A DNA stretch of 64,000 nucleotides from contig OZ024740.1 of assembly GCA_964016885.1 (NCBI GenBank), positions 296,174,001 to 296,238,000 of the forward strand. The letters run 5' to 3'. This document shows, in pieces, positions 273-64,000 of this stretch. A model generated the notes under the pieces. It ran no database searches, had not been told where the DNA came from, and was given only the letters and a program-made list of their open reading frames with translations. Position 1 is the stretch's first letter; every line of letters begins with the position of its first letter. The position numbers were made by a program, and so were the translations under genes. This stretch comes from Eledone cirrhosa. Lineage: Eukaryota.

Positions 273-1779
273 ATTTTTTATTTCGGTGATCCATTTTCTA
301 TTTGGGGGATCCATTTTTTATTTCGGTGATCCATTTTTTATTTGGGTGATCCACTTTTTATTTGATGGATCTCCCAAATAAAAAATGGATCACCCAAATA
401 AAAAATGGATCCCCCAAATAAAAAATGGATCACCCAAATAAAAAATGGATCACCCAAATAAAAACTTGATCCTCCAAATAAAAAATTGATCACCCAAATA
501 AAAAATGGATCCCCCAAATAAAAAATGGATCCCCCAAATAAAAAATGGATCCCCCAAATAAAAAATGGATCACCCAAATAAAAACTGGATCCCCCAAATA
601 AAAAATGGATCACCCAAATAAAAAATTGATCACCCAAATAAAAAATGGATCGCCCAAATAAAAAATGGATCCAAAAAATTAAAAATGGATCACCCAAATA
701 AAAAATGGATCACCCAAATAAAAAATGGATACCCCAAATAAAAAATGGATACCCAAATAAAAAATGGATCACGCAAATAAAAAATGGATCCCCCAAATAA
801 AAAATGGATCACCCAAATAAAAAATGGATCCCCCAAATAAAAAATGGATCACCCAAATAAAAAATGGATCCCCCAAATAAAAAATGGATCACCCAAATAA
901 AAAATGGATCCCCCAAATAAAAAATGGATCCCCCAAATAAAAAATGGATCCCCCAAATAAAAAATGGATCACCCAAATTAAAAATGGATCACCCAAATAA
1001 AAAATGGATCGCCCAAATAAAAAATGGATCACCCAAATAAAAAATGGATCACCCAAATAAAAAATGGATCCCCCAAATAAAAAATAGATCCCCCAAATAA
1101 AAAATGGATCCCCCAAATAAAAAATGGATCACCCTAATAAAAAATGGATCACCCAAATAAAAAATGGATCCCCCAAATAAAAAATGGATCACCCTAATAA
1201 AAAATGGATCCCCCCAAATAAAAAATGGATCACCCAAATAAAAAATGGATCCCTTTTTTATTTAGCGGATCCATTTTTTATTTCGGGCATCCATTTTTTA
1301 TTTGGCTGATCCATTTTTTATTTGGGTGATCCATTCTTTATTTGGGGGATCCATTTTTTATTTCGGTGATCCATTTTTAATTTGGGTGATCCATTTTTTA
1401 TTTGGGGGATCCATTTTTTATTTGGGTGATCCATTTTTTATTTGGGGGATCCATTTTTTATTTCGGTGATCCATTTTTTATTTGGGTGATCCATTTTTTA
1501 TTTGGGGGATCCATTTTTTATTTGGGTGATCCATTTTTTATTTGGTGGATCCAATTTTTATTTGGGGGATCCATTTTTTACTTGGGTGATCCATTTTTTA
1601 TTTGGGGTATCCATTTTTAATTTGGGTGATCCATTTTTTATTTGGGTGATCCATTTTTTATTTGAGGGATACATTTTTTATTTGGGGGATCCATTTTTTA
1701 TTTGATGGATCTCCCAAATAAAAAATGGATCACCCAAATAAAAAATGGATCACCCAAATAAAAAATGGATCACCCAAAT
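273..1779. repeat. Sat-A island, 3 orientation switches (~368, ~1248, ~1708)
   Basis: 20-bp monomers in rev-fwd-rev-fwd arms. Confidence 0.93.
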
Positions 1780-3206
1780 TGATGCTGAAATATTATGGAA
1801 AAAATGACGAAATTTTCTGGAAAAAATGACGAAATTTTTGGAAAAATTGACGAAATATTCTGGATAAATTGACGAAATATTCGTGAAAAATGTCGAAATT
1901 TTTTGGAAACAATGACGAAATTGTCGTCAAAAAATGACGAAATTTTCGGGAAATTTTGACGAAATTTTCTGTGAAAAATGCCGAAATTTTCGGGGAAAAC
2001 GTCGAAATTTTCGGCAAAAATTGTTGAAATTTTCGGCAGAAATTGTTGAAATTTTCGGCTGAAACTGACGAAATTTTCGGGAAAAAATGACGAAATTTCC
2101 GGCAAAAATTTACGAAATTTTCATGAAAAAAATGATGAAATTTTCTGTAAAAATTGACGAAAGTTTCGGGAAAAAATACTGAAATTTTCTGGAAAAAATG
2201 ACGAAATTTTTAGCAAAAATGACGAAATTTTCTGGAAAAATTGACGAAATATCCTGGATAAATTGACGAAATATTCGGCAAAAAATGTCGAAATTTTTTT
2301 GAAAAAATGACGAAATTATCGGCAAAAAATGATGAAATTTTCGGGAAAAATTGACGAAATTTTCTTTGATAAATGCCGAAATTTTCGGGAAAAAACGTCG
2401 AAATTTTCGGCTGAAACTGACGAAATTTTCGGGAAAAAATGATGATATTTTTGGCAAAAATTGACTAAATTTTCCGGAAAAAATGACGAAATATTCGGCA
2501 AAAAATGACGAAATTTTCGTGAAAAAATGCCGAAATTTTCCGCAAAAATTGACTAAATTTTCGGGGAAAATTGACGAAATTTTCGGTAAAAAATCAGGAA
2601 TTTTTAGGCAAAAATTGACGAAATTTTCGGGAAAAATTGACGAAATTTTCGGGGGAAAATGCCGAAACTTTAGGGAAAAAATGATAAAATTTTCGGCAAA
2701 AATTGACTACATTTTCGTGAAAAAATGCCGAAATTTTCCGCAAAAATTGACTAAATTTTCTGTAAAAATTGACGAAATTTTCGGTAAAAAATGAGGAATT
2801 TTTAGGCAAAAATTGACGAAATTTTCGGGAAAAAATGCCGAAATTTTAGGGGAAAAAATGATGAAATTTTCGGCAAAAATTGACGACATTTTCGGAAAAA
2901 AATGACGAAAGTTTCGGGAAAAAATGCCTAAATTTTCGGGAAAAAAGGACGAAATTTTCGGTAAAAAGTGACGAAATTTTCGGCAAAAATTGACGAAATT
3001 TTCGGCAGAATTTGACGAAATTTTCTTCAAAAAAATCCGAAATTTTCGGCAAAAATTGACGCTATTTTCGGGAAAAAACGCCGAAATTTTCAGGAAAAAT
3101 GAAAAAATTTTCGGCCAAAATGACGAAATTTTCGGGAAAAAACGACGAAATTTTCGTGAAAAAATGCCCAAATGTTCGGAAAAAATGACGAAATTTTCGG
3201 CAAAAA
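1780..3206 (+). repeat. Sat-B block
   Basis: ~22-bp units with CGAAATTTTCG core. Confidence 0.93.
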
Positions 3207-3292
3207 TTAGGAGGTAGAATCTTAGGGGGTAGAACCTTAGGAGGTAAAACCTTAGGAGGTAGAACCAAGGGGTAGAACCTTAGGGGGAATCC
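3207..3292 (+). repeat. Linker C
   Basis: Same sequence as 187-272, offset 3020. Confidence 0.95.
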
Positions 3293-4580
3293 ATTTTTTA
3301 TTTCGGTGATCCATTTTCTATTTGGGGGATCCATTTTTTATTTCGGTGATCCATTTTTTATTTGGGTTATCCATTTTTTATTTGATGGATCTCCCAAATA
3401 AAAAATGGATCACCCAAATAAAAAATGGATCACCCAAATAAAAAATGGATCACCCAAATAAAAACTTGATCCTCCAAATAAAAAATGGATCACCCAAATA
3501 AAAAATGGATCCCCCAAATAAAAAATGGATCCCCCAAATAAAAAATGGATCCCCCAAATAAAAAATGGATCACCCAAATAAAAACTGGATCCCCCAAATA
3601 AAAAATGGATCCCCCAAATAAAAAATTGATCACCCAAATAAAAAATGGATCGCCCAAATAAAAAATGGATCCAAAAAATTAAAAATGGATCACCCAAATA
3701 AAAAATGGATCACCCAAATAAAAAATGGATACCCCAAATAAAAAATAGATCACCCAAATAAAAAATGGACCCCCAAATAAAAAATGGATCACCCAAATAA
3801 AAAATGGATCCCCCAAATAAAAAATGGATCACCCAAATAAAAAATGGATCCCCCAAATAAAAAATGGATCCCCCAAATAAAAAATGGATCCCCCAAATAA
3901 AAAATGGATCACCCAAATTAAAAATGTATTACCAAATAAAAAATGGAACGCCCAAATAAAAAATGGATCGCCCAAATAAAAAATGGATCACCCAAATAAA
4001 AAATGGATCACCCAAATAAAAAATGGATCCCCCAAATAAAAAATAGATCCCCCAAATAGAAAATGGATCCCCCAAATAAAAAATGGATCACCCAAATAAA
4101 AAATGGATCCCCCAAATAAAAAATGGATCCCCCAAATAAAGAATGGATCACCCTAATAAAAAATGGATCCCCCCAAATAAAAAATGGATCACCCAAATAA
4201 AAAATGGATCCCTTTTTTATTTGGGGGATCCATTTTTTATTTGGGGGAACCATTTTTTATTTGGGTGATCCATTTTTTACTTGGGTGACCCATTTTTTAT
4301 TTGGGGTATCCATTTTTAATTTGGGTGATCCATTTTTTATTTGGGTGATCCATTTTTTTATTTGAGGGATCCATTTTTTATTTGAGGGATACATTTTTTA
4401 TTTGGGGGATCCATTTTTTATTTGGGAGATCCATTTTTTATTTGGGTTATCCATTTTTTTATTTGAGGGATCCATTTTTTATTTGAGGGATACATTTTTT
4501 ATTTGGGGGATCCATTTTTTATTTGATGGATCTCCCAAATAAAAAATGGATCACCCAAATAAAAAATGGATCACCCAAAT
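3293..4580. repeat. Sat-A island, 3 switches
   Basis: Junctions near 3388, 4208, 4530. Confidence 0.92.
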
Positions 4581-5900
4581 TAATGCTGAAATTTTCTGGA
4601 AAAAATGACGAAATTTTCTGGAAAAAATGACGAAATTTTCAGCAAAAATGACGAAATTTTCTGGAAAAATTGACGAAATATTCTGGATAAATTCACGAAA
4701 TATTCGTGAAAAAATGTCGAAATTTTTTGGAAACAATGACGAAATTATCGGCAAAAAATGACGAAATTTTCGGGAAATATTGACGAAATTTTCTGTGAAA
4801 AATGCCGAAATTTTCGGGAAAAAACGTCGAAATTTTCGGCAAAAATTGTTGAAATTTTCGGCTGAAACTGACGAAATTTTCGGGAAAAAATGACGAAATT
4901 TTTAGCAAAAATGACGAAATTTTCTGTAAAAATTGACGAAATATCCTGGATAAATTGACGAAATATTCGGTAAAAAATGTCGAAATTTTTTGGAAAAAAT
5001 GACGAAATTATCGGCAAAAAATGATGAAATTTTCGGAAAAAATTGACGAAATTTTCTTTGAAAAATGCCGAAATTTTCGGGAAAAAACGTCGAAATTTTC
5101 GCTGAAACTGACGAAATTTTCGGGAAAAAATGATGAAATTTTGGGCAAAAATTGACTAAATTTTCCGGAAAAAATCACGAAATTTTCGGCAAAAAATGAC
5201 GAAATTTTCGTGAAAAAATGCCGAAATTTTCCGCAAAAATTGACTAAATTTTCGGGGAAAATTGACGAAATTGTCGGTAAAAAATCAGGAATTTTTAGGC
5301 AAAAATTGACGAAATTTTCGGGAAAAATTGACGAAATTTTCGGGGGAAAATGCCGAAACTTTAGGGAAAAAAATGATAAAATTTTCGGCAAAAATTGACT
5401 ACATTTTCGGGAAAAAATGACGAAAGTTTCGGCAAAAAGTGACGAAATTTTCTTGGAAAAATGCCGAAATTTATCTGGAAAAAACGTCGAAATTTTCGGC
5501 AAAAATTGTTGAAATTTTCGGCTGAAATTGACGAAATTTTCGGGAAAAAATGATGAAATTTTCGGCAAAAATTGACTAAATTTTCCGGAAAAAATCACGA
5601 AATTTTCGGCAAAAAATGACGAAATTTTCGTGAAAAAATGCCGAAATTTTCCACAAAAATTGACTAAATTTTCGGCAAAAATTGACTAAATTTTCGGCAG
5701 AATTTGACGAAATTTTCTTCAAAAAAATCCGAAATTTTCGGCAAAAATTGACGATATTTTCGGGAAAAAATGCCGAAATTTTCAAGGAAAAATGAAAAAT
5801 TTTTCGGCCAAAATGACGAAATTTTCGGGAAAAAACGACGAAATTTTCGTGAAAAAATGCCCAAATGTTCGGCAAAAAATTACGAAATTTTCGGCAAAAA
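4581..5900 (+). repeat. Sat-B block
   Basis: Starts taatgctgaaattttctgg; 22-bp units. Confidence 0.93.
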
Positions 5901-5971
5901 TTAGGAGGTAGAATCTTAGGGGGTAGAACCTTAGGAGGTAGAACCAAGCGGTAGAACCTTAGGGGGAATCC
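5901..5971 (+). repeat. Linker C (one 15-bp unit shorter; ccaagcgg variant)
   Basis: 3x15-bp units plus tail. Confidence 0.93.
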
Positions 5972-7415
5972 ATTTTTTATTTCGGTGATCCATTTTCTAT
6001 TTGGGGGATCCATTTTTTATTTCGGTGATCCATTTTTTATTTGGGTGATCCATTTTTTATTTCATGGATCTCCCAAATAAAAAATGGATCCCCCAAATAA
6101 AAGATGGATCCCCCAAATAAAAAATGGATCACCCTAATAAAAAATGGATCCCCCCAAATAAAAAATGGATCCATTTTTTATTTGGGTGATCCATTTTTTA
6201 TTTGGGTGATCCATTTTTCATTTGGGTGATCCATTTTTTATTTGGTTGATCCATCTTTTATTAGGGGTATCCATTTTTAATTTGGGTGATCCATCTTTTA
6301 TTAGGGGTATCCATTTTTAATTTGGGTGATCCATTTTTTATTTGGGTGATCCATTTTTTATTTGAGGGATCCATTTTTTATTTGGGGGATCCATTTTTAA
6401 TTTGATGGATCTCCCAAATAAAAAATGGATCACCCAAATAAAAAATGGATCCCTCAAATAAAAAATGGATCACCCAAATAAAAAATGGATCACCCAAATA
6501 AAAAATGGATCCCCCAAATAAAAAATTGATCACCCAAATAAAAAATGGATCACCCAAATAAAAAATGGATCCCCCAAATAAAAAATGGTTCACCCAAATA
6601 AAAAATGGATCACCCAAATAAAAAATGGATCCCCTAAATAAAAAATGGATCACCAAATCAAAAATGGATCACCCAAATAAAAAATGGATCCCCCAAATAA
6701 AAAATGGATCACCCAAATAAAAAATGGATCCCCCAAATAAAAATGGATCACCCAAATAAAAAATGGATCACTCAAATAAAAAATGGATCCCCCAAATAAA
6801 AAATGAATCACCCAAATAAAAAATGGATCCCTTTTTTATTTAGAGGATCCATTTTTTATTTCGGGGATCCATTTTTTATTTGGGTGATCCATTTTTTATT
6901 TGGGTGATCCATTCTTTATTTGGGGCATCCATTTTTTATTTGGGTGATCCATTTTTCATTTGGGTGATCCATTTTTTATTTGGGGGATCCATTTTTTATT
7001 TCGGTGATCCATTTTTTATTTGGGTGATCCATTTTTTATTTGGGGGATCCATTTTTTATTTGGGTGATCCATTTTTATTTGGGGGTCCATTTTTTATTTG
7101 GGTGATCCATTTTTTATTTGGGTGATCCATTTTTTATTTGGTTGATCCATTTTTTATTAGGGGTATCCATTTTTAATTTGGGTGATCCATTTATTATTTG
7201 GGTGATCCATTTTTTATTTGAGCGATCCATTTTGTATTTGGGGGATCCATTTTTTATTTGATGGATCTCCCAAATAAAAAATGGATCACCCAAATAAAAA
7301 ATGGATCCCTCAAATAAAAAATGGATCACCCAAATAAAAAATGGATCCCCCAAATAAAAAATTGATCACCCAAATAAAAAATGGATCACCGAAATAAAAA
7401 ATGGATCACCCAAAT
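5972..7415. repeat. Sat-A island, 5 switches
   Basis: Junctions near 6067, 6170, 6408, 6828, 7264. Confidence 0.92.
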
Positions 7416-7746
7416 TAATGCTGAAATTTTCTGGAAAAAATGACGAAATTTTCTGGAAAAAATGACGAAATTTTCCGGAAGAAATCACGAAATTTTCGGC
7501 AAAAAATGACGAAATTTTCGTGAAAAAATGCCGAAATTTTCCGCAAAAATTGACTAAATTTTCGGCAAAAATTGACTAAATTTTCGGCAGAATTTGACGA
7601 AATTTTCGGGAAAAAACGCCGAAATTTTCGAGGAAAAATGAAAAAAATTTCGGCCAAAATGACGAAATTTTCGGGAAAAAACGACGAAATTTTCGTGAAA
7701 AAATGCCCAAATGTTCGGCAAAAAATTACGAAATTTTCGGCAAAAA
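7416..7746 (+). repeat. Short Sat-B block (internally deleted)
   Basis: Conserved first and last units retained. Confidence 0.92.
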
Positions 7747-7832
7747 TTAGGAGGTAGAATCTTAGGGGGTAGAACCTTAGGAGGTAAAACCTTAGGAGGT
7801 AGAACCAAGCGGTAGAACCTTAGGGGGAATCC
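7747..7832 (+). repeat. Linker C (ccaagcgg variant)
   Basis: 15-bp TTAGG units. Confidence 0.94.
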
Positions 7833-9359
7833 ATTTTTTATTTCGGTGATCCATTTTCTATTTGGGGGATCCATTTTTTATTTCGGTGATCCATTTTTTA
7901 TTTGGGTGACCCATTTTTTATTTCATGGATCTCCCAAATAAAAAATGGATCCCCCAAATAAAAGATGGATCCCCCAAATAAAAAATGGATCACCCTAATA
8001 AAAAATTGATCCCCCCAAATAAAAAATGGATCCATTTTTTATTTGGGTGATCCATTTTTTATTTGGGTGATCCATTTTTCATTTGGGTGATCCATTTTTT
8101 ATTTGGTTGATCCATCTTTTATTAGGGGTATCCATTTTTAATTTGGGTGATCCATCTTTTATTAGGGGTATCCATTTTTAATTTGGGTGATCCATTTTTT
8201 ATTTGGGTGATCCATTTTTTATTTGAGGGATCCATTTTTTATTTGGGGGATCCATTTTTTATTTGATGGATCTCCCAAATAAAAAATGGATCACCCAAAT
8301 AAAAAATGGATCCCTCAAATAAAAAATGGATCACCCAAATAAAAAATGGATCACCCAAATAAAAAATGGATCCCCCAAATAAAAAATTGATCACCCAAAT
8401 AAAAAATGGATCACCCAAATAAAAAATGGATCCCCCAAATAAAAAATGGTTCACCCAAATAAAAAATGTATCACCCAAATAAAAAATGGATCCCCTAAAT
8501 AAAAAATGGATCACCAAATCAAAAATGGATCACCCAAATAAAAAATGGATCCCCCAAATAAAAAATGGATCACCCAAATAAAAAATGGATCCCCCAAATA
8601 AAAACGGATCACCCAAATAAAAAATGGATCACCCAAATAAAAAATGGATCCCCCAAATAAAAAATGAATCACCCAAATAAAAAATGGATCCCTTTTTTAT
8701 TTAGAGGATCCATTTTTTACTTGGGTGACCCATTTTTTATTTGGGGTATCCATTTTTAATTTGGGTGATCCATTTTTTATTTGGGTGATCCATTTTTTTA
8801 TTTGAGGGATCCATTTTTTATTTGAGGGATACATTTTTTATTTGGGGGATCCATTTTTTATTTGGGAGATCCATTTTTTATTTGGGTGATCCATTTTTTT
8901 ATTTGAGGGATCCATTTTTTATTTGAGGGATACATTTTTTATTTGGGGGATCCATTTTTTATTTGGGAGATCCATTTTTTATTTGGGTGATCCATTTTTT
9001 TATTTGAGGGATCCATTTTTTATTTGAGGGATACATTTTTTATTTGGGAGATCCATTTTTTATTTCGGTGATCCATTTTTTATTTGGGTGATCCATTTTT
9101 TATTTGGGGGATCCATTTTTTATTTGGGTGATCCATTTTTATTTGGGGGTCCATTTTTTATTTGGGTGATCCATTTTTTATTTGGGTGATCCATTTTTTA
9201 TTTGGGGTATCCATTTTTAATTTGGGTGATCAATTTTTTATTTGGGTGATCCATTTTTTATTTGAGGGATACATTTTTTATTTGGGGGATTCATTTTTTA
9301 TTTGATGGATCTCCCAAATAAAAAATGGATCACCGAAATAAAAAATGGATCACCCAAAC
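7833..9359. repeat. Sat-A island, 5 switches
   Basis: Junctions near 7928, 8030, 8270, 8688, 9308. Confidence 0.92.
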
Positions 9360-10240
9360 TAATGCTGAAATTTTCTGGAAAAAATGACGATATTTTCTGG
9401 AAAAAATGACGAAATTTTCAGCAAAAATGACGAAATTTTCTGGAAAAATTGACGAAAAATTCTGGATAAATTGACGAAATATTCGTGAAAAAATGTCGAA
9501 ATTTTTTGGAAACAATGACGAAATTGTCGTCAAAAAATGACGAAATTTTCGGGAAATATTGACGAAATTTCCTGTGAAAAATGCCGAAATTTTCGGGAAA
9601 AAACGTCGAAATTTTCGGCAAAAATTGTTGAAATTTTCGGCTGAAACTGACGAAATTTTCGGGAAAAAATGACGAAATTTCCGGCAAAAATTTACGAAAT
9701 TTTCATGAAAAAATGATGAAATTTTCTGTAAAAATTGACGAAAGTTTCGGGAAAAAACGTCGAAATTTTCGGCTGAAACTGACGAAATTTTCGGGAAAAA
9801 ATGATGAAATTTTTGGCAAAAATTGACTAAATTTTCCGGAAAAAATGACGAAATATTCGGCAAAAATTGACGAAATTTTCGTGAAAAAATGCCGAAATTT
9901 TTCCGCAAAAATTGACTAAATTTTCTGTAAAAAATGCCGAAATTTTAGGGGAAAAAATGATGAAATTTTCGGCAAAAATTGACGACATTTTCGGGAAAAA
10001 ATGACGAAAGTTTCGGGAAAAAATGCCTAAATTTTCGGGAAAAAAGGACGAAATTTTCGGTAAAAAGTGACGAAATTTTCGGCAAAAATTGACGAAATTT
10101 TCGGGAAAAAATGCCGAAATTTTAGGGGAAAAATGAAAAAAATTTCGGCCAAAATGACGAAATTTTCGGAAAAAACGACGAAATTTTCGTGAAAAAATGC
10201 CCAAATGTTCGGCAAAAAATGACGAAATTTTCGGCAAAAA
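9360..10240 (+). repeat. Sat-B block
   Basis: 22-bp units. Confidence 0.92.
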
Positions 10241-10326
10241 TTAGGAGGTAGAATCTTAGGGGGTAGAACCTTAGGAGGTAAAACCTTAGGAGGTAGAACC
10301 AAGGGGTAGAACCTTAGGGGGAATCC
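10241..10326 (+). repeat. Linker C
   Basis: 15-bp TTAGG units. Confidence 0.94.
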
Positions 10327-11689
10327 ATTTTTTATTTCCGTGATCCATTTTCTATTTGGGGGATCCATTTTTTATTTCGGTGATCCATTTTTTATTTGGG
10401 TGATCCATTTTTTATTTGATGGATCTCCCAAATAAAAAATGGATCACCCAAATAAAAAATGGATCCCCCAAATAAAAAATGGATCACCCAAATAAAAAAT
10501 GGATCACCCAAATAAAAGCTTGATCCTCCAAATAAAAAATGGATCACCCAAATAGAAAATGGATCCCCCAAATAAAAAATGGATCACCCAAATAAAAACT
10601 GGATCCCCCAAATAAAAAATGGATCCCCCAAATAAAAAATTGATCACCCAAACAAAAAATGGATCGCCCAAATAAAAAATGGATCCAAAAAATTAAAAAT
10701 GGATCACCCAAATAAAAAATGGATCACCCAAATAAAAAATGGATACCCCAAATAAAAAATGGATCACCCAAATAAAAAATGGACCCCCAAATAAAAAATG
10801 GATCACCCAAATTAAAAATGGATCACCCAAATAAAAAATGGATCGCCCAAATAAAAAATGGATCGCCCAAATAAAAAATGGATCACCCAAATAAAAAATG
10901 GATCCCCCAAATAAAAAATGGATCACCCAAATAAAAAATGGATCACCGAAATAAAAAATGGATCCCCCAAATAAAAAATGGATCACCCAAATAAAAAATG
11001 GATCCCCCAAATGAAAAATGGATCACCGAAATAAAAAATGGATCAGCCAAATAAAAAATGAATCACCCAAATAAAAAATGGATCACCCAAATAAAAAATG
11101 GATCCCGCAAATAAAAAATGGATCACCCAAATAAAAAATGGATCCCTTTTTTATTTAGCGGATCCATTTTTTATTTGGGGGATCCATTTTTTATTTGGGT
11201 GATCCATTTTTTATTTGGGTGATCCATTTTTCATTTGGGGGATCCATTTTTTATTTGGGTGATCCATTTTTTATTTGGGGGATCCATTTTTTATTTCGGT
11301 GATCCATTTTTTATTTGGGTGATCCATTTTTTATTTACGGGATCCATTTTTTATTTGGGTGATCCATTTTATATTTGGTGGATCCATTTTTTATTTGGGG
11401 GATCTATTTTTTATTTGGGTGATCAATTTTTTATTTCGGTGATCCATTTTTTATTTGGTGATCTATTTTTTATTTGGGGGAACCATTTTTTATTTGGGTG
11501 ATCCATTTTTATTTGGGTGATCCATTTTTTATTTGGGTTATCCATTTTTAATTTGGGTGATCCATTTTTTATTTGGGTGATCCATTTTTTATTTGAGGGA
11601 TACATTTTTATTTGGGGGATCCATTTTTTATTTGATGGATCTCCCAAATAAAAAATGGATCACCCAAATAAAAAATGGATCACCCAAAT
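10327..11689. repeat. Sat-A island, 3 switches
   Basis: Junctions near 10422, 11142, 11638. Confidence 0.92.
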
Positions 11690-12064
11690 TAATGCTGAAA
11701 TTTTCTGGAAAAAATGACGAAATTTTCTGGAAAAAATGACGAAATTTTCCGGAAGAAATCACGAAATTTTCGGCAAAAAATGACGAAATTTTCGTGAAAA
11801 AATGCCGAAATTTTCCGCAAAAATTGACTAAATTTTCGGCAAAAATTGACTAAATTTTCGGCAGAATTTGACGAAATTTTCTTCAAAAAAATCCGAAATT
11901 TTCGGCAAAAATTGACGATATTTTCGGGAAAAAACGCCGAAATTTTCGAGGAAAAATGAAAAAAATTTCGGCCAAAATGACGAAATTTTCGGAAAAAAAC
12001 GACGAAATTTTCGTGAAAAAATGCCCAAATGTTCGGCAAAAAATTACGAAATTTTCGGCAAAAA
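11690..12064 (+). repeat. Short Sat-B block
   Basis: Shares the ccggaagaaatcacga join with 7416-7746. Confidence 0.92.
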
Positions 12065-12150
12065 TTAGGAGGTAGAATCTTAGGGGGTAGAACCTTAGGA
12101 GGTAAAACCTTAGGAGGTAGAACCAAGCGGTAGAACCTTAGGGGGAATCC
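12065..12150 (+). repeat. Linker C (ccaagcgg variant)
   Basis: 15-bp TTAGG units. Confidence 0.94.
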
Positions 12151-15568: not shown

Positions 15569-15654
15569 TTAGGAGGTAGAATCTTAGGGGGTAGAACCTT
15601 AGGAGGTAGAACCTTAGGAGGTAGAACCAAGCGGTAGAACCTTAGGGGGAATCC
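15569..15654 (+). repeat. Linker C (ccaagcgg variant)
   Basis: 15-bp TTAGG units. Confidence 0.94.
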
Positions 15655-50800: not shown

Positions 50801-53800
50801 CCCAAATAAAAAATGGATCACCCAAATAAAAAGTGGATCACCCAAATAAAAAATGGATCGCCCAAATAAAAAATGGATCCCCAAATAATAAATGGATCAC
50901 CCAAATAAAAAATGGATCCCCCAAATAAAAAATGGATCCCCCAAATAAAAAATGGATCACCCAAATAACAAATGGATCACCCAAATAAAAAATGGATCCC
51001 CCAAATAAAAAATGGATCACCCAAATAAAAAATGGATCACCCAAATAAAAAATGGATCACCCAAATAAAAAATGGATCACCCAAATAAAAAATGGATCGC
51101 CTAAATAAAAAATGGATCCCTCAAATAAAGAATAGATCACTCAAATAAAAAATGGATCACCCAAATAAAAAATGGATCCCCCAAATAAAAAATGGATCAC
51201 CCAAATAAAAAATGGATCACCCCAATAAAAAATGGATCCCCCAAATAAAAAATGGATCACCCAAATAGATCACAAATAGATAATGGTTCCCCCAAATAAA
51301 AAATGGATCCGCCAAATAAAAAAGGGATCCATTTTTTATTTGGGGGATCCATTCTTTATTTGGGTGATCCATTTTTTATTTGGGTGATCCATTTTTTATT
51401 TGGGGGATCCATTTTTTATTTGGGTGATCCATTTTTTATTTGGGGGATCCATTTTTTATTTGGGGGATCCATTTTTTATTTGGGTGATCCATTTTTTATT
51501 TGGGGGATCCATTTTTTATTTGGGTGATCCATTTTTTATTTGGGTGATCCATTTTTTATTTGGGTGATCCAATTTTTATTTGGGTGATCCATTTTTTATT
51601 TGGGTGATCCATTTTTTATTTGTGGGATCCTTTTTTTATTTGGGTGATCCATTTTTTATTTGGGTGATCCATTTTTTATTTGAGTGATCCATTTTTTATT
51701 TGGGGGATCCATTTTTTATTTGGGTGATCCATTTTTATTTGGGGTATCCATTTTTTATTTGGTGGATCCATTTTTTATTTGGGTGATCCATTTTTTATTT
51801 GGGTGATCCATTTTTTATTTGAGTGATCCATTCTTTATTTGAGGGATCCATTTTTTATTTGGGGGATCCATTTTTTATTTGATGGATCACCCAAATAAAA
51901 AATGGATCCCCCAAATAAAAAGTGGATCACCCAAATAAAAAATGGATCCCCCAAATAAAAAATGGATCATCAAATAAAAAATGAATCACCCAAATAAAAA
52001 ATGGATCACCCAAATAAAAAATGGATCACCCAAATAAAAAATGGATACCCCTAATAAAAAATGGATCAACCAAATAAAAAATGGATCACCCAAATAAAAA
52101 ATGGATCCCCCAAATAAAAATTGGATCACCCAAATAAAAAATGGATCACCCAAATAAAAAATGGATCACCCAAATAAAAAATGGATCCCCCAAATAAAAA
52201 ATGGATCACCCAAATAAAAAATGGATCACCCAAATAAAAAATGGATCACCCAAATAAAAAGTGGATCACCCAAATAAAAAATGGATCGCCCCAATAAAAA
52301 ATGGATCCCCAAATAATAAATGGATCACCCAAATAAAAAATGGATCCCCCAAATAAAAAATGGATCCCCCAAATAAAAAATGGATCACCCAAATAACAAA
52401 TGGATCACCCAAATAAAAAATGGATCCCCCAAATAAAAAATGGATCACCCAAATAAAAAAATGGATCCACCAAATAAAAAATGGATCGCCCAAATAAAAA
52501 ATGGATCCAAAAAATTAAAAATGGATCACCCAAATAAAAAATGGATCACCCAAATAAATAATGGATCCCCCAAATAAAAAATAGATCACCCAAATAAAAA
52601 ATGGATACCCCAAATAAAAAATGGATCCCCCAAATAAAAAATGGATTACCCAAATAAAAAATGGATCACCCAAATAAAAAATGGATCACCCAAATAAAAA
52701 ATGGATCCCCCAAATAAAAAATGGATCACCCAAATAAAAAATGGATCACACAAATAAAAAATGGATCCCCCAAATAAAAAATGGATCACCCAAATAAAAA
52801 AAGGATCCATTTTTTATTTGGGGGATCCATTTTTTATTTGGGTGATCCATTTTTTATTTGGGTGATCCATTTTTTATTTGGGGGATCCATTTTTTATTTG
52901 GGTGATCCATTTTTTATTTGTGGGATCCATTTTTTATTTGGGTGATCCATTTTTTATTTTGGGGATCCATTTTTTATTTGGTGGTTCCATTTTTTATTTG
53001 GGGGATCCATCAAATAAAAAATGGATCAGCCAAATAAAAAATGGATCACCCAAATCAAAAATGGATCCCCCAAATAAAAAATGGATCACCCAAATAAAAA
53101 ATGGACCACAAATAAAAAATGGATCCCCCAAATAAAAAATGGATCACCCAAATAAAAAATGGATCCCCCAAATAAAAAATGGATCACCCAAATAAAAAAT
53201 GGATCACCCAAATAAAAAATGGATCCCCCAAATAAGAATGGATCACTCAAATAAAAAAGGATCTATTTTTTATTTGGGGGATCCATTTTTTATTTGGGTG
53301 ATTCATTTTTTATTTGGGCGATCCATTTTTTATTTGGGTGATCCATTTTTTATTTGGGTGATCCATTTTTTATTTGGGGGATCCTTTTTTTATTTGGGTG
53401 ATCCATTTTTTATTTGGGTGATCCATTTTTTATTTGAGTGATCCATTTTTTATTTGGGGGATCCATTTTTTATTTGGGTGATCCATTTTTTATTTGGGGT
53501 ATCCATTTTTTATTTGGTGGACCCATTTTTTATTTGGGTGATCCATTTTTTATTTGGGTGATCCATTTTTTATTTGAGTGATCCATTCTTTATTTGAGGG
53601 ATCTATTTTTTATTTGGGGGATCCATTTTTTATTTGATGGATCACCCAAATAAAAAATGGATCCCCCAAATAAAAAGTGGATCACCCAAATAAAAAATGG
53701 ATCCCCCAAATAAAAAATGGATCATCAAATAAAAAATGAATCACCCAAATAAAAAATGGATCACCCAAATAAAAAATCGATCACCCAAATAAAAAATGGA

Positions 53801-56800
53801 TCACCCAAATAAAAAATGGATACCCCTAATAAAAAATGGATCAACCAAATAAAAAATGGATCACCCAAATAAAAAATGGATCCCCCAAATAAAAATTGGA
53901 TCACCCAAATAAAAAATGGATCACCCAAATAAAAAATGGATCACCCAAATAAAAAATGGATCCCCCAAATAAAAAATGGATCACCCAAATAAAAAATGGA
54001 TCACCCAAATAAAAAATGGATCACCCAAATAAAAAGTGGATCACCCAAATAAAAAATGGATCGCCCAAATAAAAAATGGATCCCCAAATAATAAATGGAT
54101 CACCCAAATAAAAAATGGATCCCCCAAATAAAAAATGGATCCCCCAAATAAAAAATGGATCACCCAAATAACAAATGGATCACCCAAATAAAAAATGGAT
54201 CCCCCAAATAAAAAATGGATCACCCAAATAAAAAATGGATCACCCAAATAAAAAATTGATCACCCAAATAAAAAATGGATCGCCCAAATAAAAAATGGAT
54301 CCCTCAAATAAAGAATAGATCACTCAAATAAAAAATGGATCACCCAAATAAAAAATGGATCCCCCAAATAAAAAATGGATCACCCAAATAAAAAATGGAT
54401 CACCCCAATAAAAAATGGATCCCCCAAATAAAAAATGGATCACCCAAATAGATCACAAATAGATAATGGTTCCCCCAAATAAAAAATGGATCCGCCAAAT
54501 AAAAAAGGGATCCATTTTTTATTTGGGGGATCCATTTTTTATTTGGGTGATCCATTTTTTATTTGGGTGATCCATTTTTTATTTGGGGGATCCATTTTTT
54601 ATTTGGGTGATCCATTTTTTATTTGGGGGATCCATTTTTTATTTGGGGGATCCATTTTTTATTTGGGTGATCCATTTTTTATTTGGGTGATCCATTTTTT
54701 ATTTGGGTGATCCATTTTTTATTTGGGTGATCCATTTTTTATTTGTGGGATCCTTTTTTTATTTGGGTGATCCATTTTTTATTTGGGTGATCCATTTTTT
54801 ATTTGAGTGATCCATTTTTTATTTGGGGGATCCATTTTTTATTTGGGTGATCCATTTTTTATTTGGGGTATCCATTTTTTATTTGGTGGATCCATTTTTT
54901 ATTTGGGTGATCCATTTTTTATTTGGGTGATCCATTTTTTATTTGAGTGATCCATTCTTTATTTGAGGGATCCATTTTTTATTTGGGGGATCCATTTTTT
55001 ATTTGATGGATCACCCAAATAAAAAATGGATCCCCCAAATAAAAAGTGGATCACCCAAATAAAAAATGGATCCCCCAAATAAAAAATGGATCATCAAATA
55101 AAAAATGAATCACCCAAATAAAAAATGGATCACCCAAATAAAAAATGGATCACCCAAATAAAAAATGGATCACCCAAATAAAAAATGGATACCCTAATAA
55201 AAAATGGATCAACCAAATAAAAAATGGATCACCCAAATAAAAAATGGATCCCCCAAATAAAAATTGGATCACCCAAATAAAAAATGGATCACCCAAATAA
55301 AAAATGGATCACCCAAATAAAAAATGGATCCCCCAAATAAAAAATGGATCACCCAAATAAAAAATGGATCACCCAAATAAAAAATGGATCACCCAAATAA
55401 AAAGTGGATCACCCAAATAAAAAATGGATCGCCCAAATAAAAAATGGATCCCCAAATAATAAATGGATCACCCAAATAAAAAATGGATCCCCCAAATAAA
55501 AAATGGATCCCCCAAATAAAAAATGGATCACCCAAATAACAAATGGATCACCCAAATAAAAAATGGATCCCCCAAATAAAAAATGGATCACCCAAATAAA
55601 AAATGGATCACCCAAATAAAAAATGGATCACCCAAATAAAAAATGGATCACCCAAATAAAAAATGGATCGCCTAAATAAAAAATGGATCCCTCAAATAAA
55701 GAATAGATCACTCAAATAAAAAATGGATCACCCAAATAAAAAATGGATCCCCCAAATAAAAAATGGATCACCCAAATAAAAAATGGATCACCCCAATAAA
55801 AAATGGATCCCCCAAATAAAAAATGGATCACCCAAATAGATCACAAATAGATAATGGTTCCCCCAAATAAAAAATGGATCCACCAAATAAAAAAGGGATC
55901 CATTTTTTATTTGGGGGATCCATTTTTTATTTGGGTGATCCATTTTTTATTTGGGTGATCCATTTTTTATTTGGGGGATCCATTTTTTATTTGGGTGATC
56001 CATTTTTTATTTGGGGGATCCATTTTTTATTTGGGGGATCCATTTTTTATTTGGGTGATCCATTTTTTATTTGGGTGATCCATTTTTTATTTGGGTGATC
56101 CATTTTTTATTTGGGTGATCCATTTTTTATTTGTGGGATCCTTTTTTTATTTGGGTGATCCATTTTTTATTTGGGTGATCCATTTTTTATTTGAGTGATC
56201 CATTTTTTATTTGGGGGATCCATTTTTTATTTGGGTGATCCATTTTTATTTGGGGTATCCATTTTTTATTTGGTGGATCCATTTTTTATTTGGGTGATCC
56301 ATTTTTTATTTGGGTGATCCATTTTTTATTTGAGTGATCCATTCTTTATTTGAGGGATCCATTTTTTATTTGGGGGATCCATTTTTTATTTGATGGATCA
56401 CCCAAATAAAAAATGGATCCCCCAAATAAAAAGTGGATCACCCAAATAAAAAATGGATCCCCCAAATAAAAAATGGATCATCAAATAAAAAATGAATCAC
56501 CCAAATAAAAAATGGATCACCCAAATAAAAAATGGATCACCCAAATAAAAAATGGATACCCCTAATAAAAAATGGATCAACCAAATAAAAAATGGATCAC
56601 CCAAATAAAAAATGGATCCCCCAAATAAAAATTGGATCACCCAAATAAAAAATGGATCACCCAAATAAAAAATGGATCACCCAAATAAAAAATGGATCCC
56701 CCAAATAAAAAATGGATCACCCAAATAAAAAATGGATCACCCAAATAAAAAATGGATCACCCAAATAAAAAGTGGATCACCCAAATAAAAAATGGATCGC

Positions 56801-56920
56801 CCCAATAAAAAATGGATCCCCAAATAATAAATGGATCACCCAAATAAAAAATGGATCCCCCAAATAAAAAATGGATCCCCCAAATAAAAAATGGATCACC
56901 CAAATAACAAATGGATCACC
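47880..56920. repeat. ~4.57-kb tandem segmental duplication within Sat-A
   Basis: Identical repeat-derived ORFs at offset 4572 (48627/53199, 49469/54041, 49914/54486); ggatccacc marker at 47891 and 52463. Confidence 0.85.
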
Positions 56921-59900
56921 CAAATTGGGTGATCCATTTTTTAATTGCGGGATCCATTTTTTATTTGGGTGATCCATTTTTTATTTGAGTGATCCATTCT
57001 TTATTTGAGGGATCCATTTTTTATTTGGGGGATCCATTTTTTATTTGATGGATCACCCAAATAAAAAATGGATCCCTTTTTTATTTAGCGGATCCATTTT
57101 TTTATTTCGGTGATCCATTTTTTATTTGGTGGATCCATTTTTAATTTGGGGGATCCATTTTTTATTTGGGTGATCCATTTTTTATTTGGGGGATCCATTT
57201 TTTATTTGGGGGATCAATTTTTTATTTGGGTGATCCATTTTTCATTTGGGTGATCCATTTTTTATTTGGTGATCCATTTTTTATTTGGGGGATCCATTTT
57301 TTATTTGGGTGATCGATTTTTTATTTGGGTGATCTATTTTTTATTTGGGGTATCCATTTTTAATTTGGGTGATCAATTTTTTATTTGGGTGATCCATTTT
57401 TTATTTGGGTGATCCATTTTTTATTTGGATGATCCATTTTTTATTTGGGGGATCCATTTTTTATTTGGGGGATCCATTTTTTATTTGGGGGATCCATTTT
57501 TTATTTGGGTGATCCATTTTTTATTTGTGGGATCCATTTTATATTTGGGGGATCCATTTTTTATTTGGGGATCTATTTTTTATTTGGGTGATCCATTTTT
57601 TATTTGGGTGATCCATTTTTTATTTGAGGGATCCATTTTTTATTTGGGGGATCCATTTTTTATTTGATGGATCTCCCAAATAAAAAATGGATCATCCAAA
57701 TAAAAAATGGATCCCCCAAATAAAAAATGGATCACCCAAATAAAAAATGGAACACCCAAATAAAAAATGGATCCCCCAAATAAAAAATGGATCCCCCAAA
57801 TAAAAAATGGATCCCCAAAATAAAAAATGGATCACCCAAATAAAAAATGGAGCCCCCAAATAAAAAATGGATCACCCAAATTAAAACTGGTTCCCCCAAA
57901 TAAAAAATGGATCACCCAAGTAAAAAATGGATCCCCCAAATAAAAAATGGATCCCCCAAATAAAAAATGGATCCTCCAAATAAAAAATGGATCACCCAAA
58001 TAAAAAATGGATCCCCAAATAAAAAATGGATCCCCAAATAAAAAATGGATCCTCCAAATAAAAAATGGATCACCCAAATAAAAAATGGATCACCCAAATA
58101 AAAAATGGATCACCCAAATAAAAAATGGATCGCCCAAATAAAAAATGGATCCCCAAATAAAAAATGGATCACCCAAATAAAAAATGGATCCCCCAAATAA
58201 AAAATGGATCCCCCAAATAAAAAATGGATCACCCAAATAAAAAATGGACCCCCAAATAAAAAATGGATCACCCAAATAACAAATGGAACACCCAAATAAA
58301 AAATGGATCCCCCAAATAAAAAATGGATCACCCAAATAAAAAATGGATCACCCAAATAAAAAATGGATCCTCCAAATAAAAAATGGATCACCCAAATAAA
58401 AAATGTATCACCCAAATAAAAACTGGATCACCCAAATAAAAACTGGATCAGCCAAATAAAAAATGGATCGCCCAAATAAAAAATGGATCCCCCAAATAAA
58501 AAATGGATCACCCAAATGAAAAATGAATCACCCAAATAAAAAATGGATCCCTCAAATAAAGAATGGATCACTCAAATAAAAAATGGATCACCCAAATAAA
58601 AAATGGATCCCCCAAATAAAAAATGGATCACCCAAATAAAAAATGGATCACCCAAATAAAAAATGGATCCCCCAAATAAAAAATGGATCACCCAAATAAA
58701 AAATGGATCCCCCAAATAAAAAAGGATCACCCAAATAAAAAATGGATCATTCAAATAAAAAATGGATCACCCAAATAAAAAATGGATCCCCCAAATAAAA
58801 AATGGATCACCCAAATAAAAAATAAATCACCCAAATAAAAAATGGATCACCCAAATAAAAAATTGATCCCCCAAATAAAAAATGGATCACCCAAATAAAA
58901 AATGGATCACCCAAATATAATATGGATCCCCCAAATAAAAAATGGATCCCCCAAATAAAAAATGGATCCCCCAAATAAAAAATGGATCCCCCAAATAAAA
59001 AATGGATCACCCAAATAAAAAATGGATCCCCAAATAAAAAATGGATCCCCAAATAAAAAATGGATCCTCCAAATAAAAAATGGATCACCCAAATAAAAAA
59101 TGGATCACCCAAATAAAAAATGGATCACCCAAATAAAAAATGGATCGCCCAAATAAAAAATGGATCCCCAAATAAAAAATGGATCACCCAAATAAAAAAT
59201 GGATCCCCCAAATAAAAAATGGATCACCCAAATAAAAAATGGATCACCCAAATAAAAAATGGATCGCCCAAATAAAAAATGGATCCCCAAATAAAAAATG
59301 GATCACCCAAATAAAAAATGGACCCCCAAATAAAAAATGGATCACCCAAATAACAAATGGAACACCCAAATAAAAAATGGATCCCCCAAATAAAAAATGG
59401 ATCACCCAAATAAAAAATGGATCACCCAAATAAAAAATGGATCCTCCAAATAAAAAATGGATCACCCAAATAAAAAATGTATCACCCAAATAAAAACTGG
59501 ATCATCCAAATAAAAACTGGATCAGCCAAATAAAAAATGGATCGCCCAAATAAAAAATGGATCCCCCAAATAAAAAATGGATCACCCAAATGAAAAATGA
59601 ATCACCCAAATAAAAAATGGATCCCTCAAATAAAGAATGGATCACTCAAATAAAAAATGGATCACCCAAATAAAAAATGGATCACCCAAATAAAAAATAA
59701 ATCACCCAAATAAAAAATGGATCACCCAAATAAAAAATTGATCCCCCAAATAAAAAATGGATCACCCAAATAAAAAATGGATCACCCAAATAAAAAATGG
59801 ATCCCTTTTTTATTTGGCGGATCCATTTTTTTGGGGGGGATCCATTATCTATTTGGGTGAACCATTTTATGTTTGGGGGATCCAGTTTTTATTTGGGTGA

Positions 59901-60239
59901 TCCATTTTTTATTTGGGGGATCCATTTTTTATTTGGGTGATCCATTTTTTATTTGGTGATCCATTTTTTATTTGGGGGATCCATTTTTATTTGGGTGATC
60001 CATTTTTTATTTGGTTGATCCATTTATTATTAGAGGTATCCATTTTTAATTTGGGTGATCCATTTTTTAATTGTGTGATCCATTTTTTATATGAGGGATC
60101 CATTTTTTATTTGGGGGATCCATTTTTTATTTGATGGATGTCCCAAATAAAAAATGGATCACCCGAATAAAAAATGGATCCCCCAAATAAAAAATGGATC
60201 CCCCAAATAAAAAATGGATCCCCCAAATAAAAAATGGAT

Positions 60240-63200
60240 CACCCAAATAAAAAATGGATCACCCAAATAAAAAATGGATCACCCAAATAAAAAATGGATC
60301 GCCCAAATAAAAAATGGATCCCTCAAATAAAGAATAGATCACTCAAATAAAAAATGGATCACCCAAATAAAAAATGGATCCCCCAAATAAAAAATGGATC
60401 ACCCAAATAAAAAATGGATCACCCCAATAAAAAATGGATCCCCCAAATAAAAAATGGATCACCCAAATAGATCACAAATAGATAATGGTTCCCCCAAATA
60501 AAAAATGGATCCGCCAAATAAAAAAGGGATCCATTTTTTATTTGGGGGATCCATTTTTTATTTGGGTGATCCATTTTTTATTTGGGTGATCCATTTTTTA
60601 TTTGGGGGATCCATTTTTTATTTGGGTGATCCATTTTTTATTTGGGGGATCCTTTTTTTATTTGGGGGATCCATTTTTTATTTGGGTGATCCATTTTTTA
60701 TTTGGGTGATCCATTTTTTATTTGGGTGATCCATTTTTTATTTGGGTGATCCATTTTTTATTTGTGGGATCCTTTTTTTATTTGGGTGATCCATTTTTTA
60801 TTTGGGTGATCCATTTTTTATTTGAGTGATCCATTTTTTATTTGGGGGATCCATTTTTTATTTGGGTGATCCATTTTTTATTTGGGGTATCCATTTTTTA
60901 TTTGGTGGATCCATTTTTTATTTGGGTGATCCATTTTTTATTTGGGTGATCCATTTTTTATTTGAGTGATCCATTCTTTATTTGAGGGATCCATTTTTTA
61001 TTTGGGGGATCCATTTTTTATTTGATGGATCACCCAAATAAAAAATGGATCCCCCAAATAAAAAGTGGATCACCCAAATAAAAAATGGATCCCCCAAATA
61101 AAAAATGGATCATCAAATAAAAAATGAATCACCCAAATAAAAAATGGATCACCCAAATAAAAAATGGATCACCCAAATAAAAAATGGATCACCCAAATAA
61201 AAAATGGATACCCCTAATAAAAAATGGATCAACCAAATAAAAAATGGATCACCCAAATAAAAAATGGATCCCCCAAATAAAAATTGGATCACCCAAATAA
61301 AAAATGGATCACCCAAATAAAAAATGGATCACCCAAATAAAAAATGGATCCCCCAAATAAAAAATGGATCACCCAAATAAAAAATGGATCACCCAAATAA
61401 AAAATGGATCACCCAAATAAAAAGTGGATCACCCAAATAAAAAATGGATCGCCCAAATAAAAAATGGATCCCCAAATAATAAATGGATCACCCAAATAAA
61501 AAATGGATCCCCCAAATAAAAAATGGATCCCCCAAATAAAAAATGGATCACCCAAATAACAAATGGATCACCCAAATAAAAAATGGATCCCCCAAATAAA
61601 AAATGGATCACCCAAATAAAAAATGGATCACCCAAATAAAAAATGGATCACCCAAATAAAAAATGGATCACCCAAATAAAAAATGGATCGCCTAAATAAA
61701 AAATGGATCCCTCAAATAAAGAATAGATCACTCAAATAAAAAATGGATCACCCAAATAAAAAATGGATCCCCCAAATAAAAAATGGATCACCCAAATAAA
61801 AAATGGATCACCCCAATAAAAAATGGATCCCCCAAATAAAAAATGGATCACCCAAATAGATCACAAATAGATAATGGTTCCCCCAAATAAAAAATGGATC
61901 CGCCAAATAAAAAAGGGATCCATTTTTTATTTGGGGGATCCATTTTTTATTTGGGTGATCCATTTTTTATTTGGGTGATCCATTTTTTATTTGGGGGATC
62001 CATTTTTTATTTGGGTGATCCATTTTTTATTTGGAGGATCCATTTTTTATTTGGGGGATCCATTTTTTATTTGGGTGATCCATTTTTTATTTGGGTGATC
62101 CATTTTTTATTTGGGTGATCCATTTTTTATTTGGGTGATCCATTTTTTATTTGTGGGATCCTTTTTTTATTTGGGTGATCCATTTTTTATTTGGGTGATC
62201 CATTTTTTATTTGAGTGATCCATTTTTTATTTGGGGGATCCATTTTTTATTTGGGTGATCCATTTTTATTTGGGGTATCCATTTTTTATTTGGTGGATCC
62301 ATTTTTTATTTGGGTGATCCATTTTTTATTTGGGTGATCCATTTTTTATTTGAGTGATCCATTCTTTATTTGAGGGATCCATTTTTTATTTGGGGGATCC
62401 ATTTTTTATTTGATGGATCACCCAAATAAAAAATGGATCCCCCAAATAAAAAGTGGATCACCCAAATAAAAAATGGATCCCCCAAATAAAAAATGGATCA
62501 TCAAATAAAAAATGAATCACCCAAATAAAAAATGGATCACCCAAATAAAAAATGGATCACCCAAATAAAAAATGGATACCCCTAATAAAAAATGGATCAA
62601 CCAAATAAAAAATGGATCACCCAAATAAAAAATGGATCCCCCAAATAAAAATTGGATCACCCAAATAAAAAATGGATCACCCAAATAAAAAATGGATCAC
62701 CCAAATAAAAAATGGATCCCCCAAATAAAAAATGGATCACCCAAATAAAAAATGGATCACCCAAATAAAAAATGGATCACCCAAATAAAAAGTGGATCAC
62801 CCAAATAAAAAATGGATCGCCCCAATAAAAAATGGATCCCCAAATAATAAATGGATCACCCAAATAAAAAATGGATCCCCCAAATAAAAAATGGATCCCC
62901 CAAATAAAAAATGGATCACCCAAATAACAAATGGATCACCCAAATAAAAAATGGATCCCCCAAATAAAAAATGGATCACCCAAATAAAAAATGGATCACC
63001 CAAATAAAAAATGGATCACCCAAATAAAAAATGGATCACCCAAATAAAAAATGGATCGCCTAAATAAAAAATGGATCCCTCAAATAAAGAATAGATCACT
63101 CAAATAAAAAATGGATCACCCAAATAAAAAATGGATCCCCCAAATAAAAAATGGATCACCCAAATAAAAAATGGATCACCCCAATAAAAAATGGATCCCC

Positions 63201-64000
63201 CAAATAAAAAATGGATCACCCAAATAGATCACAAATAGATAATGGTTCCCCCAAATAAAAAATGGATCCGCCAAATAAAAAAGGGATCCATTTTTTATTT
63301 GGGGGATCCATTTTTTATTTGGGTGATCCATTTTTTATTTGGGTGATCCATTTTTTATTTGGGGGATCCATTTTTTATTTGGGTGATCCATTTTTTATTT
63401 GGAGGATCCATTTTTTATTTGGGGGATCCATTTTTTATTTGGGTGATCCATTTTTTATTTGGGTGATCCATTTTTTATTTGGGTGATCCATTTTTTATTT
63501 GGGTGATCCATTTTTTATTTGTGGGATCCTTTTTTTATTTGGGTGATCCATTTTTTATTTGGGTGATCCATTTTTTATTTGAGTGATCCATTTTTTATTT
63601 GGGGGATCCATTTTTTATTTGGGTGATCCATTTTTATTTGGGGTATCCATTTTTTATTTGGTGGATCCATTTTTTATTTGGGTGATCCATTTTTTATTTG
63701 GGTGATCCATTTTTTATTTGAGTGATCCATTCTTTATTTGAGGGATCCATTTTTTATTTGGGGGATCCATTTTTTATTTGATGGATCACCCAAATAAAAA
63801 ATGGATCCCCCAAATAAAAAGTGGATCACCCAAATAAAAAATGGATCCCCCAAATAAAAAATGGATCATCAAATAAAAAATGAATCACCCAAATAAAAAA
63901 TGGATCACCCAAATAAAAAATGGATCACCCAAATAAAAAATGGATACCCCTAATAAAAAATGGATCAACCAAATAAAAAATGGATCACCCAAATAAAAAA
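60240..64000. repeat. ~1.37-1.39-kb higher-order repeat of Sat-A (one forward plus one reverse arm per unit)
   Basis: Marker agatcacaaatagataatgg at 60469, 61858, 63226. Confidence 0.88.

Follow-up and report, generated by a model that had tools for sequence, protein, structure and literature searches.

The 64,000-nucleotide stretch of Eledone cirrhosa DNA analyzed here (the window; C1, contig OZ024740.1, positions 296,174,001-296,238,000) carries Sat-A, a satellite of 20-bp monomers that switches strand 96 times and in most cases keeps its GATC sites on a 20-bp lattice across the switch. With a probability of about 0.75, almost all of these switches are copies of two junction types that came from one in-place inversion, were multiplied by duplication and were turned round again by exchange, the register being inherited and not enforced. 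C1 is 443 Mb long in a genome of 3.0 Gb. The window consists of tandem repeats only, namely Sat-A, Sat-B (22 bp) and Sat-C (15 bp). The Sat-A monomer is best described as a 10-bp A-tract core and a 10-bp linker with GATC at its center. The commonest monomer defines orientation F, its reverse complement is called R, and phases 0-19 are numbered from the G of GATC in F. Sat-A is arranged in cassettes up to about 32.1 kb and is unbroken from 32167 to the end of the window.

Strand switches and the GATC register

Strand switches were called with a hidden Markov model (HMM) in which the strand can switch into any of the 20 phases with equal prior. By this model the window contains 96 switches, of which 37 fall in its first half (1-32 kb) and 59 in its second (32-64 kb). 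A preliminary description of this DNA, made from its letters, had counted about 95 by hand, and its two half counts are identical to those of the model. The direction is R to F in 54 switches and F to R in 42, and the density is 96 switches per 49 kb of Sat-A. The internal Sat-A blocks (n = 84) measure 29-2400 bp with a median of 463 bp.

The register had been described as conserved across the switches. The lattice offset is 0 in 88 of the 96 switches, -1 in seven and -3 in one (at 56926), and only about five would be expected at offset 0 under random phase. Tabulated in this manner, the spacing is far from random if the junctions are independent. They are not independent, and the 96 switches therefore cannot count as 96 trials; this treatment was rejected in view of their common breakpoints and variants. 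The monomer also matches itself over the greatest length (4-6 bp) at offset 0, the GATC dyad being its longest self-complementary stretch. Among the positions that had been traced by hand, GATC stands at 308, 328, 348, 368, 388, 408, 1228, 1248 and 1268, whereas 1288 reads CATC. Inside single-strand blocks, 161 lattice slips were found (0.065 per monomer), which outnumber the switches, and GATC is present in all 20 phases over the whole window. The GATC lattice is therefore only local.

Two junction lineages

All 54 R-to-F switches have one breakpoint, J1, in two orientations. The form R12|F17 occurs 43 times, a one-SNP variant of it 3 times, and the exact reverse complement R2|F7 8 times. J1 is an intact F-type 10-bp linker flanked by inverted arms. 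Of the 42 F-to-R switches, 41 belong to one family, J2, which comprises 14 J2a, 10 J2a reversed, 14 J2b and 3 of the symmetric form, J2sym. J2a differs by a single substitution from the exact reciprocal partner of J1, and its linker exists as an ordinary monomer variant. All seven -1 offsets of the window are J2b.

A sample of about 568 kb of the satellite family on C1 gave 740 HMM switches, 688 of them in arrays of the type found in the window (Sat-A1), where the offset is 0 in 654 of the 688. The count leaves out the other 52 switches, which come from a sibling array at 295.44-295.54 Mb and comprise 24 artefacts of a palindromic linker (9-bp R calls), 22 copies of a -4 junction, one -2 junction and five others. 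J1 and J2 together hold 95 of the 96 junctions in the window and 657 of the 688 in the Sat-A1 arrays of C1. The preliminary description had named descent of all junctions from only two events as a case against its reading, and this case essentially applies, with two lineages that fit the two ends of one inversion. A TCC linker is found in 158 of 286 R-to-F junctions versus 22 of 13,282 ordinary linkers, and a CCCT linker in 120 of 210 F-to-R junctions versus 152 of 13,282. These rare linker variants mark the common descent of the junctions. Outside the two lineages, 12 minor junction classes were grouped by eye, several of which may be center deletions of J1 or J2; one lies on the lattice (on a TA dyad), two are at +1 or -1 and nine are off-lattice.

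Multiplication of junctions by copying

Direct evidence that junctions multiply by copying is provided by a direct duplication of 2866 bp that carries six of them (Table 1). In total, the window holds 23 direct duplications of at least 500 bp at 98.5% identity or more, all on the plus strand, and 21 of them carry junctions. An exact twin of at least 40 bp exists for 66 of the 96 junctions. The best minus-strand match at 97% identity or more is 239 bp long and has no junction inside. The J1/J2 pair is also present on C5, where it accounts for 12 of the 13 switches at 64.41-64.44 Mb, and on C195, where it accounts for both switches.

The pairs of junctions that bound a block differ between the two halves of the window. 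In 1-32 kb they are unflipped only, with 20 J1f-J2f pairs and six with symmetric J2. In 32-64 kb they are mixed, with 18 J1f-J2r and four J1r-J2f pairs in addition to two J1r-J2r. Mixed pairs can arise only if F and R blocks exchange sequence, and recombination between opposite-strand blocks appears to act on the array. Over 100 bp, the arms of J1 are 0.896 identical versus 0.902 in controls (0 of 203 pairs at 99%), and those of J2 are 0.878 identical versus 0.880 (0 of 226 pairs at 99%). A recent fold-back (hairpin-primed) palindrome was ruled out, as the arms are not mirror copies and their means equal those of the controls.

Origin of the two junction types

The process would have begun with one segment of a head-to-tail Sat-A array being inverted in place, its two ends symmetric about GATC dyads. 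With cut phases p and q, an in-place inversion would place both ends on the lattice together or neither of them (p + q = 2 mod 20). This holds for the left and the right junction alike, and their agreement is therefore not two coincidences. J1 implies p = 6 and q = 16 and thus predicts the partner F6|R3. This partner, predicted beforehand, was later located three times on the margin of the 279.47-Mb array.

Another single-event route would fit equally well, in which a crossover within 8 bp shared by a normal monomer and a palindromic-linker monomer gives J1 together with symmetric J2. These two junctions bound 78 of the 82 blocks at 296.30-296.58 Mb. The palindromic-linker variant makes up 3 of 13,282 linkers in Sat-A1 versus 339 of 424 strict 10-bp linkers in the sibling array 0.7 Mb away. 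Either route would be symmetric about GATC. The founder was probably a template switch or crossover guided by the GGATCC dyad, because a blind event would fall on the lattice only 1 time in 20. Reversible in-place inversion of a spacer between inverted arms is a process already described, as reported in the available part of the source (PMC8604942).

Junction-bearing segments would subsequently have been duplicated directly and moved to other loci, as the duplications and the copies on other contigs directly demonstrate. Homologous exchange between F blocks and R blocks would then have turned single junctions round, and since such exchange pairs aligned monomers, the register would be kept without any constraint. 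Finally, slips and new or eroded junctions would break the lattice and still persist, which is what the 161 slips and the off-lattice junctions exemplify.

Related arrays in the assembly

On C5, an array of the same monomer was sampled in 30 stretches of 10 kb (300 kb) spread across about 1.17 Mb, and no switch was found in them; one C5 call, a 10-bp R stretch at an array edge, was dropped as spurious. The sampled stretches contain about 450 GATC sites per 10 kb, and this one-way array shows that GATC is not sufficient for switching. Exact Sat-A dimers number 9,109 genome-wide (1,091 forward and 8,018 reverse), of which about 5,900 are extrapolated to C5 and C195. Most Sat-A in the assembly lies outside the type of array seen in the window and runs one way. 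Exact runs of five monomers occur in the assembly only on C1, C5 and C195, where about 90% of the dimers are accounted for. J1 has 239 matches in the genome; the first 100 are all in one array, and about 201 are extrapolated to the arrays of C1.

A second junction-rich array on C1 (279.476-279.700 Mb; 224 kb, 17 Mb away) has the same junction lineages, and its right end resembles the part at 296.3-296.57 Mb in opposite orientation. Cassettes at 295.24-295.37 Mb on C1, 0.9 Mb upstream, are 99-100% identical to those of 1-32 kb in the window. The upstream cassette array ends, and the array of the window begins, at a gap of 200 N, and the two are possibly one array that was split in scaffolding.

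The sibling array at C1 295.44-295.54 Mb, Sat-A2, has a perfect 10-bp palindromic linker and a unit in which an R block and a short F block are accompanied by some 1.09 kb of sequence of another kind. The -4 junction in 22 copies is its own. The linkers of Sat-A2 have the appearance of recombinants between halves of J1 and J2, and the array may therefore represent either the ancestral donor or a scar that was amplified. In Sat-A3, the A-tract core is kept and GATC is lost; it adjoins Sat-A1 on C1 (296.572-296.639 Mb), C5 and C195.

An inverted junction of Sat-C occurs in six identical copies within 20 kb at C1 295.22-295.24 Mb (stretches L049 and L050, the first at L049:561-577). Its dyads are 25 bp apart, which is 5 off its 15-bp lattice, and R blocks of about 1 kb follow. 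An off-dyad junction has thus been amplified in Sat-C, in the same pattern of one junction in many copies as in Sat-A. Strand switching of Sat-B had been considered for the same region from reverse 14-mer matches and was rejected; the matches were Sat-C, and Sat-B never switches. At L053:40-160, roughly 80 bp of F sequence were inserted independently between directly duplicated copies of the R sequence. This insertion has one of its ends on the TA dyad, its second end is off-lattice, and it looks like a template-switch product. The flanks of the arrays contain a short dispersed SINE-like repeat (L016:1620-1720, L017, L073), which may resemble a repeat of octopod genomes.

Short-read contigs X5 and X8, whose species identity with the source was not shown, contain the Sat-A monomer at very high depth. 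Runs X1-X4 were left out, with only 5-7% of words in common. Of the raw reads on Sat-A from runs X9 and X10, roughly three in four continue into unlike sequence, which suggests short Sat-A tracts beside other DNA or library ends at restriction sites.

Competing explanations

Several points weigh against one founding inversion followed by copying, and some of them would be expected if the GGATCC dyad were a recurrent switch point that makes new on-lattice inversions by template switching or recombination. Symmetric J2 (83 of the 688 junctions) carries no marker; it is the expected product of a true GATC pivot and may have arisen repeatedly in that way. One R-to-F junction, in stretch L109 (offset -1), resembles such a pivot, and an independent insertion in 11 copies turns exactly on the second (TA) dyad of the monomer. 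In Sat-A3, the sibling that lacks GATC, not one switch was found over 48,857 bases at 296.59-296.64 Mb, and every stretch examined runs in a single direction. Offset 0, as stated above, is the register of the longest self-match, and the 1-in-20 chance of a blind founder on the lattice favors guidance of the founding event by the dyad. The junction lineages are unrooted, so one event is not separated from two or three, and neutral copying alone leaves the persistence of hundreds of kb-scale inverted repeats unexplained. Predicted folding energies are -21 to -32 kcal/mol for 80-mers that span a junction versus about -3 for those inside blocks. Arm divergence of 10-12% and imperfect centers likely reduce the instability of inverted repeats. 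Recurrent pivoting is nevertheless unlikely. Its clean product, in which two ordinary monomers pivot on GATC, occurs in none of the 286 strict R-to-F linkers and has 0 exact matches genome-wide versus 239 for J1. The contrast with Sat-A3 loses force beside the GATC-bearing monomer of C5, in which 300 kb passed without a switch. The 12 minor classes are distributed near chance, with 0.6 expected at offset 0 and 1.8 within 1. The earlier proposal that inversions pivot on the dyad of the monomer thus survives for the founding inversion, which would be symmetric about GATC and plausibly guided by it, but not for a pivot that recurs.

Selection might instead keep the inverted blocks as hairpins, cruciforms or loops that organize heterochromatin or a centromere, which would be compatible with a history of copying. 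The strong local hairpins predicted at the junctions, the persistence of at least 688 junctions and a layout like that of Tribolium, with conserved inversion sites and second-satellite cassettes in the available parts of both reports (PMC13081366, PMC12581902), are in its favor. It is still rather improbable, as most Sat-A is one-way (the dimers extrapolated to C5 and C195), five-monomer runs are confined to three contigs and not present on all chromosomes, junction centers vary, arms are not homogenized, and function is called untested by the Tribolium authors in the part available. The preliminary description had also raised a symmetric binder that needs an unbroken 20-bp GATC lattice, so that selection removes off-lattice junctions. 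The 654 of 688 junctions at offset 0 agree with this, but the 161 in-block slips speak against it, as do off-lattice junctions that persist and were amplified (-4 in 22 copies, +4 in eight and +5 in three) and a sibling array nearly without GATC, and such a constraint is very improbable. Library or assembly artefacts (amplification chimeras or fold-back reads) can hardly explain the switches. Among the listed short-read pieces, none spans a junction by 31 bases in both directions, and two arrays adjoin scaffold gaps. Chimeras, however, predict scattered breakpoints or mirror arms, whereas hundreds of junctions have common breakpoints, rare variants and non-mirror arms; the stronger argument is that these breakpoints and variants recur in diverged copies on two chromosomes. 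In addition, 8 and 5 raw Illumina reads from two runs, not shown to be of the same species, extend past the end of a stretch where depth is 0, which would imply that they cross the F-to-R junction at 4213, a hint that concerns J2 alone. It is just as far-fetched to regard the array as the decayed remains of clustered foldback transposons with inverted arms of tandem repeats. The available part of a report on such elements describes modular inverted arms with internal tandem repeats that can seed satellites (PMC4079207), and Sat-A2 repeats an R block, an F block and its 1.09 kb of other sequence. In Sat-A, however, no middle domain separates the arms, which join at a monomer linker; the inspected edges adjoin other tandem repeats or scaffold gaps, and the copies appear to be clustered in a few large arrays rather than dispersed.

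Features of the window

The coordinates of the satellites, junctions and other features are collected in Table 1. The B-C-A cassettes of 1-32 kb are arranged head to tail, and their 231-bp transition was scored in 40 full-length copies with 99-100% identity. Sat-B keeps one strand throughout the window, with 1105 of 1105 strand-specific words on the plus strand. The Sat-C blocks (for example 3207-3284) hold TTAGG/TTAGGG-like words, which may resemble telomere motifs. A 7-bp deletion variant of Sat-A, with GATC spaced by 13 bp, was found in 10 cases and tags one lineage of duplicated F blocks.

Table 1. Coordinates of satellites, junctions and duplicated segments in the window
Feature	Position	Strand	Remarks
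Sat-A1, 20-bp satellite	264..64000	both	F 31,085 bases, R 18,337 bases
Sat-B block, 22-bp quasi-palindromic satellite	1797..3206	+	One of 13 blocks, 9 to 32119
Sat-C block, 15-bp repeat	3207..3284	+	About 5 copies; between Sat-B and Sat-A in every cassette
Full cassette	1780..4583	+	Sat-B, Sat-C, then Sat-A R, F, R, F
J1, R to F (R phase 12 / F phase 17)	365..374	+	First of 46 copies in this orientation
J1 reversed (R2|F7)	33749..33758	-	8 copies: 33759, 38804, 40618, 41318, 47041, 47739, 48439, 53011
J2a, F to R (F5|R2)	1245..1254	+	14 copies in this orientation
J2a reversed (F17|R14)	43708..43727	-	10 copies, 43718 to 63283
J2sym, F to R	6160..6180	.	Perfect palindromic center; 3 copies: 6172, 8033, 12351
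J2b	32780..53270	.	14 junctions within span; extra substitutions or 1-bp slip beside dyad
J3	56915..56935	.	Sole off-lattice switch of the window (-3); turn in AT-rich core, not GATC
Direct duplication	47757..55194	+	47757-50622 vs 52329-55194, 2866 bp, 99.5%, 6 junctions
7-bp deletion variant, Sat-A F blocks	43616-43712, 45203-45299, 46592-46688		

Implications

Sat-A has a real and unusual satellite architecture of the macro-dyad kind known from Tribolium, denser and with a shorter monomer. Its register most likely goes back to the founder and has been maintained by homologous processes since then, rather than reflecting an undescribed system, for which the flipping repeat had been considered the best candidate. 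Conservation, even in perfect register, can come from one event and copying. The tests offered here for a founder origin are the reciprocity of the two junctions, the rare variants they have in common and a one-way array of the same monomer. Dense satellite macro-dyads are thereby also documented outside Tribolium, whose genomes are roughly ten times smaller, in a very different genome of 3 Gb that includes a one-way array as an internal control. As the flipping arrays of C1 and the one-way array of C5 consist of the same monomer, a role in chromatin or stability can be tested with the sequence held constant.

A further possibility, which is doubtful at present, is that a dyad-bearing monomer becomes self-inverting once a single on-lattice inversion seeds the array. 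Opposite blocks would then flip junctions in register, and the palindromic state would spread between chromosomes and be kept for a structural role in cruciform or loop chromatin. If true, it would be the first macro-dyad system of the Tribolium type outside Tribolium, with a one-way control of the same monomer in the same genome.

Comparison with known systems

The closest known system is the macro-dyad symmetry of Tribolium satellites. In Tribolium madens, the satellites TmSat1 and TmSat2 form inverted subarrays with a few conserved types of inversion site in thousands of copies, according to the available part of a 2026 paper, in which macro-dyad symmetries are given as documented only in Tribolium (PMC13081366). 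No report of register-keeping satellite inversions was found in the literature covered, from which most subscription journals were missing, although the Tribolium supplements with junction alignments lay outside the coverage and could show register effects. Conserved inversion sites are read as a hint of function in the accessible parts of the Tribolium papers (PMC13081366, PMC12581902), and it is also considered that their conservation could reflect the mode of spread rather than function (PMC13081366).

Sat-A is like the T. madens satellites, as far as their description was available, in its inverted subarrays (96 switches in the window and 688 in the Sat-A1 arrays of C1), in its few conserved inversion sites without foreign sequence (two lineages and a 10-bp linker here), and in its cassettes of flexible block length that are mixed with a second satellite through conserved transitions (PMC13081366). 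Identical junctions on different chromosomes, here J1 and J2 on C1, C5 and C195, are likewise known from Tribolium (PMC12581902). The T. madens element, in contrast, is about 110 bp long and mostly forms two subarrays of kb to tens of kb, whereas Sat-A has a 20-bp monomer and many alternating blocks with a median of 463 bp. The T. madens arrays are putatively (peri)centromeric and occur on all chromosomes, whereas long runs of Sat-A are found on two chromosomes and one unplaced contig, and a pan-centromeric location of Sat-A in this assembly looks unlikely, although further arrays may be missing from the assembly. Each junction of Sat-A also exists in both orientations with the register kept, and a one-way array of the same monomer is present, unlike in the available account of T. 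madens, in which the register of the monomer is not a subject (PMC13081366).

Sat-A resembles TfSat01 and TfSat03 of T. freemani, as partly available, in that no foreign sequence lies at the turn and the arms pair nearly as far as the turn itself, which leaves a short loop of 9-27 bp there and the 10-bp linker here (PMC12581902). T. freemani has six junction types with differing truncation points, unlike the one dominant reciprocal pair of Sat-A (PMC12581902). Foldback transposons (Tetris and relatives), in the part of the report available, also have inverted arms of short tandem repeats, but neither a middle domain nor dispersed copies were seen here (PMC4079207). Template switching between short inverted repeats differs in its few-base spacers in unique sequence, compared with satellite blocks of hundreds of bases in Sat-A, but it is alike in producing an in-place reversible inversion, which fits both the founding event and the flipped centers (PMC8604942, available in part).

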